From Candidatus Pelearchaeum maunauluense (GTDB lineage: Archaea; Thermoproteota; Nitrososphaeria_A; Caldarchaeales; Caldarchaeaceae): a stretch of 64,000 nt of DNA. The position numbers and the translations under genes were made by a program. Below the pieces are notes generated by a model. The model did no database searches. It saw only the letters and a list, made by a program, of their open reading frames with translations, and had not been told where the DNA came from. The stretch lies in contig JANVYQ010000004.1 of assembly GCA_030059675.1 (NCBI GenBank), positions 1 through 64,000 of the forward strand. The letters are read 5' to 3'. Of this stretch, positions 1 to 16,918 are shown piece after piece. The number at the start of each line of letters is the position of its first letter. The stretch's first letter is position 1.

Positions 1-127
1 CCTCAAGCAGGGATACCTTCTCCTCAAGCCTGTTTAGAAACTCGTTGCGTAAGTCTTCAATCTCCTTCCTGACATCCGCTATCGTCTCGCTCTTCTTCCC
101 GCCGAGGATACCCATGAATTCTCGCAT
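1..127 (-). CDS. N-terminal fragment of a coiled-coil hypothetical protein (continues off the window)
   Basis: Reverse frame from ATG at 127 (or 115) reads MREFMGILGGKKSETIADVRKEIEDLRNEFLNRLEEKVSLLE with no stop; TATA-like CTTATAAAA at about 146-154. Confidence 0.55.
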   Translation of the reverse strand, partial: MREFMGILGGKKSETIADVRKEIEDLRNEFLNRLEEKVSLLE

Positions 128-268
128 TTAGCATGAGGGGCGGCCTTATAAAAACTGTGTCTCGGATTTCGTCGGAAAGCCTAATCCACGATACAAGAGC
201 TCCGCGTAGCTATTCTTTTAAATAAGAGACGCTGATAAGGGTTGCGCGGTGCCTAGGGTGGATGCACG

Positions 269-967
269 ATGATGGTCACCGTTGAGGAGGCTCTCGCGCG
301 TTTCTTCAAGATAGGCGCTATCCTCGCCCTGTTGGGGGCTCTCCACATGCTCACGCTCCTCCTCCCCTGGTATGTAGTCTCTCCCGACACGCTGGTCCAG
401 GTCTACATTAGCGGCTACAACGTCCTTGAAACTCTAGCCCTCTCAGTTGTAGGCGGAATCCTGGCAGGCATGGGCTTGCTAATATCCAGCTTCATGGGTA
501 GGGTGAGGACTGTGAGGCTTGTCCTAACCTCGCTGGCGATTGCCGGCGGAGCCTTGGCAGCGCTCTCGCCGACATACTTGCTGATGGTTAAGATACCCCG
601 CCTACAGGTGGCTGGCAATATTGAGTGGGGTCTCTTTGCCTCGCTCTTCACAGCCCTCGCGCTCCTCGCTGTAGGAATACTGGCAGCGCTCACACGTCTC
701 TCAGAACCAAGATACACATACAGCTTCACGGGCACAGTAGCAAGCACGATGCCCCAGCTAGAAGAGACAAGCGTAGGCGAGACAACATTTGAGCCAGCAG
801 AGAGCGTAGAAGAAGGGGCTATGTGCACAATCTGCTACCAAGACGTATCAGCTGACGACGCCGTAAAATGCGCTTCATGCGGCATGGTTTATCACGGGGG
901 ATGCATAGATGAGTGGGTTAGCCTTAACGGTAACTGCCCCAACTGTAAGAGTGTGGTGAAGTCCTAA
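269..967 (+). CDS. Membrane protein (about 4 TM helices) with C-terminal C4HC3 RING-type zinc finger
   Basis: Four hydrophobic segments, acidic/Thr-rich linker, then CTIC-x11-CASC-x4-HGGC-IDEW-x6-CPNC. Confidence 0.8.
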   Translation: MMVTVEEALARFFKIGAILALLGALHMLTLLLPWYVVSPDTLVQVYISGYNVLETLALSVVGGILAGMGLLISSFMGRVRTVRLVLTSLAIAGGALAALSPTYLLMVKIPRLQVAGNIEWGLFASLFTALALLAVGILAALTRLSEPRYTYSFTGTVASTMPQLEETSVGETTFEPAESVEEGAMCTICYQDVSADDAVKCASCGMVYHGGCIDEWVSLNGNCPNCKSVVKS

Positions 968-1009: not shown

Positions 1010-2467
1010 GTGGAGACTATGGGGATGGATGAAATCATAAGACTCGCGCTGGAGCGCGGCTTCTTCTTCCCATCAGCCGAAATCTACCCAAAGACACCAG
1101 CGGGGCTGTGGGACTACGGCCACCTGGGGGTTCTCCTGAAGCAGAAGTATATACAAGCATGGATTCGCGAGATTGTGCGCCGCGACGAGATGATTCTCGT
1201 GGACGGCTCGCAGATACTCCCACGCGATGTCTTCGTAGCTTCTGGACATTTGGAGAGCTTCGCAGACCCAGTGAGCAGCTGCCTCAAGTGCCGCTCCATA
1301 CATCGCGTTGATAGGCTGATAGAGGAGGTGGCTGGGGTCAAGGTTCCTGAGAGAACGCCGCCTGAGCAGATAACCGCGCTCATACGCGAGCATAATGTAC
1401 GCTGCCCTTCATGCGGCGGCGAGCTGGGCGAGGTAAGTCTCTTCAACATGATGTTCAGGCTGAGCGTCGGAGCATCTGGCGATGAAGCATACCTAAGACC
1501 AGAGACATGCCAGAATCTCTTCATAGACTTCCCCCGCATATACAAAATCTCGCGGCGTAAGCTTCCAGTAGGTTTTGCGCAGGTGGGTAAGAGCTTTAGG
1601 AACGAGATATCGCCGCGCCAATCCCTGACTAGGCTCCGCGAGTTCTACCAAGCCGAGGTGGAGGTCTTCTTCAACCCCGCAAAGGCTAATGAGCTGGAGA
1701 AGTTTGAGAGATTCAGGGACTATCCACTCCGCCTTTACTTTGACGAAGAGCTGCATATAACCACATGCGGCGAAGCTGTGGAGAGCAGAATAGTATCAAG
1801 CCGCCTAGCTGCATACTATCTGGCGCTCATACAGAGCTTTTACCTCAAGCTGGGAATACCTGAAGAGAAGCTCCGTATAAGAAGGCTGTTGGAAGATGAG
1901 AAGGCTTTCTACGCCGTTGAGGCATGGGACTTGGAGGTCTTGACGAGCATAGGCTGGATGGAGCTGGTGGCCTGCAACAATCGCGGGGACTACGACCTAA
2001 GCGGCCACGCGCGAGTAAGCCGCGCAGACATGCAGGTCTTTGAAGACGGTGAAAAATTCACACCCCACGTATTTGAGCTCTCCATGGGCGTTGACAGGAG
2101 CATACTCGCTCTCTTAGACCTGGGCTACAGGGTAGAGAACGGGAGGACAGTCCTAAAGCTCCACCCAGCACTGGCACCATACACGGCTGCCGTCTTCCCA
2201 CTTGTAGATAAGCCCGAGCTGGTCAGCAAAGCACGGGAGCTCTACGAGTCCCTCAGGCTGGATATGGATGTCTTCTACGACGAGAGCGGCTCAATAGGGA
2301 GGAGATACAGGCGCCAAGACGAGATAGGCACGCCGTTCTGCATAACAATAGACTACCAAACACTAGAAGACAACACCGCAACAATAAGAGATAGAGACAG
2401 TATGCAGCAGGTTAGGTTGCCGATGCATGAAATTCCGAGCTATCTCGGCGGTAAAACTAAACTCTAG
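1010..2467 (+). CDS. glyS: Glycyl-tRNA synthetase (archaeal/eukaryotic alpha2 type)
   Basis: YLRPETCQ, QVGKSFRNEISPRQ, ELSMGVDR and SIGRRYRRQDEIGTPFC motifs; start may be ATG 1019. Confidence 0.97.
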   Translation: METMGMDEIIRLALERGFFFPSAEIYPKTPAGLWDYGHLGVLLKQKYIQAWIREIVRRDEMILVDGSQILPRDVFVASGHLESFADPVSSCLKCRSIHRVDRLIEEVAGVKVPERTPPEQITALIREHNVRCPSCGGELGEVSLFNMMFRLSVGASGDEAYLRPETCQNLFIDFPRIYKISRRKLPVGFAQVGKSFRNEISPRQSLTRLREFYQAEVEVFFNPAKANELEKFERFRDYPLRLYFDEELHITTCGEAVESRIVSSRLAAYYLALIQSFYLKLGIPEEKLRIRRLLEDEKAFYAVEAWDLEVLTSIGWMELVACNNRGDYDLSGHARVSRADMQVFEDGEKFTPHVFELSMGVDRSILALLDLGYRVENGRTVLKLHPALAPYTAAVFPLVDKPELVSKARELYESLRLDMDVFYDESGSIGRRYRRQDEIGTPFCITIDYQTLEDNTATIRDRDSMQQVRLPMHEIPSYLGGKTKL

Positions 2468-15553: not shown

Positions 15554-15979
15554 CTATTCTTCCACCCTTACATCCTCCTCAACGAAGCGCGGGCCTTCGC
15601 TTGCATCTTCGCGTCTCCATGAGCGGTACTCAACCACGCCGCCGCTGGATACCGAGACGATGAGGTAAGAGTACCAGGGGAAGGAGTGTTCTAGGTCGTA
15701 CTGGGATGGTCTTGCCGCGACGTTTGGATGCGAGTGGTAGGTGCCTACGACGCGGAGGCCACGCTCCTCCGCGCTCTTCTCCACACGATAATACTCCATA
15801 GGGTCAATCCTATACCTAACGCGCCTATCCCCCTCGTGCACGTTGCTAACACGGACAACATCAACAACCATGCGCTCGTCTTCATCCCTCCCCAGCATGA
15901 GGCCGCAGCACTCGTATGGGTAAGACTCAACGCAGTGGTCTAGGATTTTCTTCATGGCTGCGCCGCTCACAACCAGCAT
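15554..15979 (-). CDS. JAMM/MPN+ (M67) metallopeptidase, Mec/CysO-Cys peptidase-like
   Basis: YPYECCG and YHSHP..ARPS..D catalytic motif; directly downstream of cysteine synthase. Confidence 0.9.
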   Translation of the reverse strand: MLVVSGAAMKKILDHCVESYPYECCGLMLGRDEDERMVVDVVRVSNVHEGDRRVRYRIDPMEYYRVEKSAEERGLRVVGTYHSHPNVAARPSQYDLEHSFPWYSYLIVSVSSGGVVEYRSWRREDASEGPRFVEEDVRVEE

Positions 15980-15994
15980 GTCTCCACACGCTCG

Positions 15995-16918
15995 CTATGG
16001 CTTTAGGCTGTTGCTCAGAGAGTCGGGGAATATTACGACTATATTTCCTTCACTCAGCTCCTCATAGAGCCTAAGCGCCGCCGCGAGCGCTGCGCCAGAG
16101 GATATACCCGCCAGTATCCCCTCGCGTAGCGCTACCTCGCGCGCCATGGCCTCGGCTTCTTCTGTCCTCACCTTTTCATGGATGTCCGCTGCCTCGCTGT
16201 CGTATATCGCTGGGAGCATCGCGCTCGCCATGTGCTTCAGCCCCTCTATCCCATGAAACTCCTCATCTGGCTGGACCTCCACAATCCTTATCCGCGGATT
16301 AAACTCCCTAAGCCTCCGCGAAGTCCCCATAAGCGTGCCTGAAGTCCCAACCCCAGCTACCAGGTGCGTGATAGCCCCGTTGGTCTGCGCTATTATCTCA
16401 ACAGCCGTCGTCTCATAATGGGCAAGAGGGTTGGCTGGGTTGCTGTACTGGTCTGCGTAGAAGTATGCACCCCTCTCCTGCTCGTATAGCTGGCGCGCGT
16501 ATCTTATAGCGCCATCTATTCCCTCAATAGCTGGCGTCAGCACAAGCTCAGCCCCGAATGCCCGCATCTTCTTTATCTTTGCCTGCGCAGCGTTCGCTGG
16601 AACTATAAGCTTGACGCGATAACCCAGCGCAGCGCCGAGCATGGAGTATGCGACGCCAGTGTTTCCAGAGGTTGCGTCTAGTATTATCTTACGCCGCGTA
16701 AGCCTGCCTGTCCTCTCCCCGTCCAGAATCATGTAGAGCGCTGGCCTATCCTTGACGGAGCCTCCTGGGTTCATCATCTCCAGCTTGGCGAAGAGCCTCA
16801 CGCCGCGTTTGCTCTCAAACCGCCTAAGCCTGACTAGGGGTGTCTTGCCTATGAGCGAGGCCACGCCGCGGCCGTTAGCCAGCTCAATAAGCGCTGTGCC
16901 CCTGCCTACGGTCATCAC
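15995..16918 (-). CDS. cysM: PLP-dependent cysteine synthase family protein (CysM-like)
   Basis: KLEMMNPGGSVKDR, ATSGNTG, GVGTSGT and IEGLK. Confidence 0.85.
   Translation of the reverse strand: MMTVGRGTALIELANGRGVASLIGKTPLVRLRRFESKRGVRLFAKLEMMNPGGSVKDRPALYMILDGERTGRLTRRKIILDATSGNTGVAYSMLGAALGYRVKLIVPANAAQAKIKKMRAFGAELVLTPAIEGIDGAIRYARQLYEQERGAYFYADQYSNPANPLAHYETTAVEIIAQTNGAITHLVAGVGTSGTLMGTSRRLREFNPRIRIVEVQPDEEFHGIEGLKHMASAMLPAIYDSEAADIHEKVRTEEAEAMAREVALREGILAGISSGAALAAALRLYEELSEGNIVVIFPDSLSNSLKP

Follow-up and report, generated by a model that had tools for sequence, protein, structure and literature searches.

A candidate membrane-anchored RING E3 ligase tied to the Caldiarchaeum-type ubiquitin system

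Architecture of the TM-RING protein

We analyzed the first 64 kb of contig C16 from the genome of the hot-spring archaeon Candidatus Pelearchaeum maunauluense (order Caldarchaeales; 1.79 Mb in 21 contigs, 94% complete); this whole stretch of DNA is referred to below as the window. At positions 269..967 of its forward strand lies an open reading frame (ORF) with an ATG start, 232 codons, and a stop codon, which encodes a polytopic membrane protein ending in a RING finger, here called TM-RING (for transmembrane RING). In most members of a 28-sequence family alignment, which underlies the conservation values given below, a start codon is located 25 residues ahead of the conserved motif of the first transmembrane segment. 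An earlier reading of the DNA, made from its letters alone (the sequence-only reading), had proposed this gene as a candidate membrane-bound E3 ubiquitin ligase. Our results support this interpretation; all computational tests that the sequence-only reading had named as able to refute it were run, and none of them did so.

TM-RING starts with a short N-terminal segment (residues 1-14; 269..310, forward strand), predicted to be cytoplasmic, which averages 2.3 Lys plus Arg residues in 14 and contains R11 in all members. This segment forms the start of a helix spanning residues 5-31 in a model generated with AlphaFold2 (AF2) from the 28-sequence alignment (mean predicted local distance difference test [pLDDT] score, 88.5; predicted template modeling score, 0.60). 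The four-helix membrane domain (residues 15-143; 311..697, forward strand) contains four hydrophobic segments in the Kyte-Doolittle hydropathy profile, at about residues 15-37 (TM1), 55-76 (TM2), 84-107 (TM3), and 121-143 (TM4). The AF2 model shows four long helices and three strands in loops 1 and 3 (residues 33-37, 45-48, and 116-118), with pLDDT values of >90. The linker that follows (residues 144-184; 698..820, forward strand) is acidic and poorly conserved, with 8 Glu and 1 Arg, a median net charge of -3 in the family, and a length of 37 to 60 residues among its members. Residues 150-167 have pLDDT values of <50; the end of the linker (about residues 171-184) is conserved and is modeled as a strand packing against the finger. 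The C-terminal C4HC3 RING finger (residues 185-227; 821..949, forward strand; C16:821-949 in a profile search of the genome) has pLDDT values of >90 in the whole-protein model, and a separate model, which covers the finger and the 17 residues ahead of it and carries no metal, reached 94.9.

Identity of the RING finger

The finger reads C186-x2-C189-x11-C201-x2-C204-x4-H209-x2-C212-x3-W216-x6-C223-P-x-C226, followed by K227. Residues 185-227 match Pfam zf-RING_2 (PF13639; E value, 1e-10) with 42.1 bits against a cut-off of 27.3, as do all 28 aligned members at their own fingers, and a sequence search of the PDB returned RNF38 as the best match (E value, 5.9e-7), followed by Arkadia, RNF165, RNF126, and RLIM, all of which are RING-H2 E3 ligases. 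Given this score and these solved relatives, the finger is not a chance pattern. The similarity to RING-H2 E3s (i.e., RNF38, Arkadia, RNF165/Ark2C, RNF12, and EL5; E values of 6e-7 to 3e-5) includes the CIxxW helix and the CPxC end. However, these enzymes have Cys-x-His where zinc site 2 of TM-RING has Cys-x2-Cys, which makes the latter a C4HC3 finger. In the alignment with RNF38, C204 replaces the usual third Cys, a Met stands at the usual His, and C201 is an extra ligand.

Fold comparisons led to the same class. Every row listed by Foldseek for the finger was a RING or U-box E3, many of them solved with a ubiquitin-conjugating enzyme (E2). The best was RNF12 with Ube2e2 (E value, 2.7e-3; TM score, 0.63, within a range of 0.55 to 0.66 for the best fold matches), and further rows included RNF38, RNF165, EL5, Rad18, RNF8, RNF13, and gp78; no E value reached 0.001, as is expected of a query of 65 residues. 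In an exhaustive VIA comparison, the HRD1 RING ranked first (Z score, 7.2; root mean square deviation [rmsd], 1.9; 53 residues aligned), and the rest were mainly RING E3s, with a few treble clefs (i.e., TFIIH p44, C1 domains, and PHF7) at Z scores of 5 to 6.

The sequence-only reading had left the choice between a RING and a PHD finger to be decided, and both the Pfam scores and the fold comparisons favor a RING. With 19.0 bits, the PHD profile (PF00628) fell short of its cut-off of 24, its match was limited to positions 1-30 of 47, and we rejected it. No classical PHD reader was among the fold matches listed by Foldseek and VIA, although an unlisted family could still exist. C1 and PHD profiles gave weak, sub-threshold matches to the finger; Prok-RING_1 (PF14446) remained below its cut-off with a partial match (19.4 versus 29.1 bits); and RINGv (PF12906), the profile of MARCH and Doa10, was not among the 25 Pfam families listed at E values of up to 10. 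A search against NCBIfam returned no family for TM-RING, and no Pfam match was found outside the finger region.

Conservation was strongest in the finger (mean pairwise identity, 0.56), followed by the membrane domain (0.46), the 13 residues preceding the finger (0.41), and the linker (0.22). All eight Cys/His ligands are invariant, as are I188 and P224, and W216 is present in 26 of the 28 members, with Tyr in the other two (both from genus g2). The Pro after the seventh Cys is counted among the E2-contact residues of RING E3s. The four helices, the acidic linker, the exact finger motif, and the retention of the E2-binding Ile, Trp, and Pro had all been picked out from the sequence beforehand and are borne out here. 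Four members (P0002-P0005) and the ORF at L010 157-906 form a subgroup that ends in C-P-N-P-N-C-Q-R, with four rather than two residues between the last two ligands and a Gln after the last Cys.

The membrane domain and its orientation

Averaged over the 28 sequences, Lys plus Arg residues are more frequent in the N terminus (2.3) and loop 2 (2.8) than in loop 1 (0.4) and loop 3 (1.7). According to the positive-inside rule, an established principle of membrane protein topology, both termini and the finger are thus predicted to be cytoplasmic. An extracellular finger, which the sequence-only reading had named as an outcome contrary to its proposal, is therefore not what this prediction gives, and a cytoplasmic location suits a Cys-rich zinc site.

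The predicted fold of the membrane domain (i.e., four bundled helices plus a small outer beta-sheet formed by loops 1 and 3) resembles that of claudins, PMP22, transmembrane AMPA receptor regulatory proteins (TARPs), and Cav-gamma subunits. Nearly all rows listed by Foldseek were claudins, TARPs, Cav-gamma, or GARLH4 (best E value, 1.1e-3). The ten best VIA rows all belonged to this superfamily (Z scores of 11.0 to 13.2, 127 to 144 residues, rmsd of 2.7 to 3.6), such as GARLH4 (Z score, 13.2) and claudin-15 (Z score, 12.6; 138 residues; rmsd, 3.6), and unrelated four-helix bundles came next at Z scores of about 10. Since helical bundles can attain Z scores of about 13 without kinship, we describe the domain as having a claudin-like shape rather than as a member of the superfamily. 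Unlike claudins, whose signature includes two Cys residues, TM-RING has no Cys in loop 1, and there is no sequence similarity between the two; no claudin-type Pfam family appeared among the matches listed at E values of up to 10. An Atlas search with the membrane domain first listed two TM-RING clusters from archaea, with 53 and 78 members, followed by four-helix membrane proteins of bacteria (TM scores of 0.72 to 0.77), including the look-alikes Trp_oprn_chp and DUF4293, and the best score in an Atlas feature search (0.78) was below the level that shuffled proteins often reach.

Invariant residues of the N-terminal part and membrane domain are R11, H26, L30, W34, G49, S59, G63, G67, S100, P101, and G121. 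The conserved polar residues among them suggest that this domain may have a specific role in the membrane in addition to tethering. When 1.84 billion representatives were searched with a profile of residues 1-150, built from 25 sequences, 15 proteins were retrieved at E values of up to 0.001, with no RING-less relative among them at HMMER sensitivity: the sequences of P0008, P0012, P0017, and P0019 are TM-RING proteins or fragments, and the other 11 (163 to 259 amino acids [aa]) were judged by length and match position. P0019 is a 310-aa member that is distantly related and has a longer, coiled linker, and P0008 is a 188-aa form with a garbled C terminus. A 213-aa membrane protein of G371 (one of the genomes surveyed here, which are denoted by G numbers) gave a weak match to the membrane domain (E value, 2.6e-4).

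In its architecture of a membrane anchor joined to a cytosolic RING, TM-RING is comparable to Hrd1, gp78, MARCH, Doa10, and the PA-TM-RING protein RNF13. The comparison with MARCH, Doa10, and Hrd1 made from the sequence alone stands at this level but does not extend to family membership: the RINGv profile was not matched, and the membrane domains are unrelated, with two helices in MARCH and eight in Hrd1 compared with four in TM-RING.

Junction with the ubiquitin operon

The genes for ubiquitin, E2, the ubiquitin-activating enzyme (E1), and a small RING protein (srfp) are arranged in a row on the forward strand at the end of contig C12 of the same genome (52.2, 105.1, 206.6 [ThiF], and 36 bits, respectively). 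The ubiquitin ends in GG plus a short tail, the E1 contains a C-terminal ubiquitin-like part, the small RING protein comprises 78 aa, and the E2 is the only PF00179 match above the cut-off in the genome. The end of C12 and the start of the window share 29 bases without a mismatch. In addition, a minus-strand coiled-coil ORF (L009 6705-7454) runs off the end of C12, and the first 38 codons of a coiled-coil gene of about 278 aa, divergent from the TM-RING gene, are located at positions 115..1 of the window (feature 1..115, minus strand). The orthologue in the sister genome G016 is intact (278 aa), the window piece corresponding to its residues 1-38 (33 of 38 identical) and the C12 piece to its residues 30-278 (233 of 249 identical). 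From the overlap and this split gene, we conclude that contigs C12 and C16 adjoin, which puts the start of TM-RING about 1.35 kb downstream of the gene for the small RING protein. Two coiled-coil genes lie between them, one on the same strand (107 aa; L009 6368-6691) and one on the opposite strand (the split gene of about 278 aa). The statement in the sequence-only reading that the window holds no ubiquitin, E1, or E2 gene is thus literally true and reflects a contig end; its suggestion to look for these genes elsewhere in the genome led to all three on C12. The G016 assembly also breaks in this neighborhood, with the small RING gene at a contig edge.

Distribution and gene neighborhood in Caldarchaeales

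We surveyed 76 genomes of the order, representing four families and 15 genera, with a family profile, and identified full-length TM-RING in 72 of them. Of the others, G050 (59% complete) had no match, and G062, G066, and G071 showed the finger only, in short frames; in G015, the gene is in two pieces at two contig ends. E2 (PF00179) was above the cut-off in 75 of the 76 genomes and was missing only in G050, so that the check for co-occurrence that had been suggested beforehand turned out in favor of the proposal. In a phylum sample of 401 evenly drawn genomes, full-length TM-RING was found in 58 of the 60 genomes from the order and in none of the 341 others, 8 of which gave matches that were weak and partial or limited to the finger. 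E2 occurred in all 60 genomes from the order and was above the cut-off, as shorter partial matches, in 6 of the 341 others, none of which were among the eight with a RING match. A word-indexed search yielded no more than six clusters (90% identity) of similar length, one of which is named 'RING finger protein [Candidatus Caldarchaeales archaeon]'. The E2-like proteins of the six genomes outside the order (G108, G136, G283, G288, G308, and G398), which have no RING match, score 59 to 67 bits over profile positions of about 47-120 in frames of 185 to 212 aa and may represent a different E2-like system.

In 52 of the 76 genomes, the small RING gene shares its contig and strand with TM-RING and is located 1.27 to 2.08 kb upstream of it. 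In the remaining genomes, the two genes are mostly on different contigs, and G033 has another gene order with a 6.8-kb gap. Across three families (G012, G057, G037, and G029), the same row was found: small RING, a coiled-coil gene of about 105 aa, a coiled-coil gene of about 280 aa on the opposite strand, TM-RING, and a class II aminoacyl-tRNA synthetase. In G012, G057, and G037, this row begins with JAB/Rpn11, ubiquitin, E2, and E1. In family f2, the E2 gene is elsewhere; in G029, for example, it is at 1,435,378, about 85 kb from the block at 1,348,609-1,350,826, and G018 and G036 are similar. The small RING gene, the two coiled-coil genes, and TM-RING thus remain together apart from the ubiquitin-E2-E1 genes and behave as a unit of their own. 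These results show that TM-RING is linked to the Caldiarchaeum-type ubiquitin system both physically and phylogenetically.

The coiled-coil protein of about 280 aa is encoded by the divergent neighbor of TM-RING in 21 of the 25 genomes with loci (hidden Markov model search). Of the four misses, G017 and G051 have contig ends <190 bases upstream, G047 has 470 bases only, and G021 (genus g6) gave no match within 5 kb. This protein starts with MGxLGGK, and the one of about 105 aa has a conserved 'YVETPRGRV'-like start. Pfam searches of both gave only sub-threshold coiled-coil noise, and a profile of 11 orthologues matched only generic coiled coils among PDB sequences (best, THP2; E value, 3.9e-5); the idea that the MGxLGGK protein is ESCRT-III or PspA-like was supported by neither search.

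Genus g6 (G021-G027; e.g., L033 5871-6707 and L074 1550-2554, both minus strand) has a longer TM-RING, in frames of 279 to 312 aa. Its other RING lies in frames of 143 to 338 aa, and a second, weaker E2-like match was found in frames of 274 to 288 aa.

Relationship to srfp and to published work

TM-RING and srfp (CSUB_C1477; PMC3082918 and PMC5654768) have an identical ligand pattern (C-x2-C-x11-C-x2-C-x4-H-x2-C-x10-C-x2-C), match zf-RING_2, have Ile, Trp, and a basic residue at the positions tested in srfp, and occur in the same genomes and neighborhood. They differ in that srfp is soluble, encoded in frames of 70 to 120 aa, and located inside the operon, whereas TM-RING has a 143-residue four-helix domain plus a linker and lies two genes away. 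A BLASTP alignment of the two fingers of the genome studied here has no gaps in 45 residues, 11 of which are identical. In an unrooted tree of 49 fingers (46 columns), 25 TM-linked fingers are separated from 24 small or other fingers by one branch with a support of 91/88 (below the starred level), and each side contains members of all four families. This topology fits, and does not prove, an old duplication that may have given rise to TM-RING and srfp before the order diversified.

According to the accessible text of Hennell James 2017 (PMC5654768), the srfp substitutions I30Q, W58A, and R69A abolish or impair ubiquitylation in vitro, srfp alone is sufficient in that assay, and srfp deviates from RING-H2 as a C4HC3 finger, like TM-RING. 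The assignment of the Pro after the seventh Cys as an E2 contact comes from RING E3s in general and not from these substitutions. Only the small RING of the operon is described in the accessible text of that paper and of Nunoura 2011 (PMC3082918), the latter using the word 'transmembrane' 0 times. In the accessible text of Fuchs et al. 2018 (PMC6043591), one sentence states that the C. subterraneum operon is 'adjacent to a second E3 protein'; both proteins are called 'small E3 RING finger proteins', 'membrane' occurs 0 times, and that text gives no architecture, distribution, or test. Grau-Bové 2015 counted zf-RING_2 genes in aigarchaeotes and, in the text accessible to us, gave no architecture. 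The 90% cluster of the genus g2 orthologue contains entries named 'hypothetical protein CSUB_C1480', 'RING-type domain-containing protein', and 'RING-H2 finger protein', and CSUB_C1480 is three locus tags after srfp CSUB_C1477. The second E3 protein of Fuchs et al. is almost certainly CSUB_C1480, the orthologue of TM-RING. Our literature search, whose scope did not extend to the prokaryotic-RING survey Burroughs 2011, found no mention of CSUB_C1480 and nothing relevant on an archaeal transmembrane or membrane-anchored RING.

That a second E3 lies beside the operon is thus already in print (Fuchs et al. 2018, PMC6043591). New, as far as this literature shows, are its anchoring in the membrane, the tetraspan fold, the conservation throughout the order, the conserved putative coiled-coil partners, and the operon junction in this genome. 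The picture of two small E3s is corrected in that one of them is a polytopic membrane protein.

Proposed function and alternative explanations

We propose, with a probability of about 0.6, that TM-RING is a membrane-anchored RING E3 of the Caldiarchaeum-type ubiquitin system and a second, ancient paralogue of srfp. The four-helix domain would anchor the protein in the cytoplasmic membrane such that both termini face the cytoplasm, and the flexible acidic linker would tether the cytoplasmic C4HC3 finger. The finger would bind the only E2 of the genome when the latter is charged with ubiquitin and would promote the attachment of ubiquitin to lysines of membrane or membrane-associated proteins. 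The membrane domain, with H26, W34, S59, and S100-P101, would provide localization and probably the choice of partners or substrates, and the two coiled-coil proteins encoded between srfp and TM-RING are likely candidates for partners or targets.

Several observations weigh against this proposal. A search of sequencing runs listed no RNA run, and one DNA run contained 0.05 of the sequence words. TM-RING and E2 are both nearly universal in a single clade, and their co-occurrence therefore represents a single evolutionary event rather than independent evidence. Part of the neighborhood conservation may likewise be plain inherited gene order, since housekeeping genes are also conserved nearby (i.e., those for a PhoU_div protein, a tRNA-splicing endonuclease, and the synthetase). 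In genus g6, TM-RING is not near the small RING gene, the two being 553 kb apart in G021. The basic 'linchpin' residue after the last Cys, which the sequence-only reading had noted, is present in the protein studied here (K227), but family-wide it is Lys in 18 and Arg in 1 of the 28 members (19 of 28) and is absent in the other 9 (Gly in 4, Gln in 4, and Asn in 1). The two members in which the helix Trp is replaced by Tyr are both from genus g2, which holds the named Caldiarchaeum orthologue. Lastly, proteins of about 310 aa that combine transmembrane segments, bPH_2, and zf-RING_2 (L070 1273-2211 and L071 1099-2025, both forward strand; 35.4 and 30.1 bits, above the zf-RING_2 cut-off) occur in G370 (93% complete) and G119 (87% complete), which do not belong to the order, and neither genome has an E2 or ubiquitin match even at an E value of 1. 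These proteins seem to be a different membrane RING family working without a ubiquitin system, and their occurrence in archaea lacking a detectable E2 means that a membrane RING alone does not imply an E3.

This last point, together with the variable linchpin, the Tyr substitutions, the weak C1 and PHD matches, and the divergently linked coiled-coil gene, would suit an E2-independent zinc-finger scaffold that anchors the coiled-coil neighbors or other partners at the membrane and has no ligase activity. We consider this explanation unlikely: I188 and P224, which have no role in zinc binding, are invariant, and W216 is kept in 26 of the 28 members, all three at positions that contact E2 in RING E3s; the family is confined to a clade with the full ubiquitin-E1-E2 set; and the nearest relatives of the finger in sequence and fold are active E3 RINGs.

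TM-RING could instead be the membrane partner of srfp in a RING heterodimer like BRCA1-BARD1 or RING1B-BMI1, in which one subunit localizes the complex and the other is active. The RING block that is preserved where the ubiquitin-E2-E1 genes are elsewhere (G029, G018, and G036) is consistent with such a pairing, there is only one E2 to share, and two separate RING lineages, each represented in all four families, would be expected of paralogues that have long coevolved. The sufficiency of srfp alone in vitro argues against such a heterodimer, however, as does the lack of adjacency of the two genes in genus g6 and G033, and we regard a heterodimer as quite improbable. Very improbable, in our view, is a regulator that tunes the srfp pathway by recruiting or sequestering E2 (or E1-E2) at the membrane or by serving as the main target of auto-ubiquitylation, for which the combination of conserved E2-contact residues with a variable position for activation of ubiquitin-charged E2 and the single E2 could be cited, but which is at odds with the Lys or Arg after the last Cys in most members (K227 here) and with conserved polar membrane residues that suggest a membrane function beyond tethering.

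If TM-RING is indeed a membrane-anchored E3, a broader and more tentative idea is that Caldarchaeales possess a membrane arm of the ubiquitin system, in which TM-RING, the small RING protein, and the two coiled-coil proteins would mark membrane proteins for extraction, degradation, or sorting; we think this possible but would not presume it. In that case, ubiquitin-dependent membrane protein control of the type seen in endoplasmic reticulum-associated degradation and with MARCH ligases would be older than eukaryotes and present beyond the Asgard lineage, based on a claudin-like tetraspan anchor not known in any eukaryotic E3. Even ligase activity by itself would mean that membrane-associated ubiquitylation predates eukaryotes and is not confined to Asgard archaea. 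No eukaryote-like ubiquitin system is simpler than the Caldiarchaeum cascade, which has been reconstituted in vitro with an artificial substrate and a single soluble E3; a RING that is fixed in the membrane, present throughout the order, and tied to the operon provides a hypothesis for its site of action, namely, the membrane. The occurrence of membrane RING proteins in archaea without E2 calls for caution, and the proposal is directly testable, as the cytoplasmic part of TM-RING can be swapped into the published assay.

Flanking sequences and other features

The divergent intergenic region between the coiled-coil gene and TM-RING (116..268; 153 bp), delimited by inspection of the sequence, contains A+T-rich, TATA-like stretches at about 141-152 and 216-225, which may serve as promoters, and a GGTG 9 nucleotides before the ATG. 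Downstream of TM-RING, a class II aminoacyl-tRNA synthetase gene (1010..2467, forward strand; Pfam tRNA-synt_2b and HGTP_anticodon), which we take to be of the glycyl type, is probably functionally unrelated to TM-RING; a synthetase gene was also adjacent to TM-RING in all five other genomes inspected.

A weak match on contig C5 (L008 1477-1734, minus strand) was considered as a possible third RING of the genome and rejected, the gene encoding an 85-aa two-helix protein with a CxxC...CxxC zinc ribbon. Genes that we read as ribosomal protein-like lie upstream of the ubiquitin gene (L009 1678-3987). An Rpn11-like JAB protein (71.6 bits) is encoded outside the window at G000:C16:129645-129959 (minus strand), away from the ubiquitin gene, whereas in G012, G057, and G037 the two genes are neighbors. 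Inside the window, a Prok-JAB protein (141 aa; 86 bits; 15554-15979, minus strand) is encoded directly downstream of a 307-aa gene (15995-16918, minus strand) that looks like a cysteine-synthase-type enzyme, and this Prok-JAB protein is probably of the sulfur-carrier type and outside the ubiquitin system.

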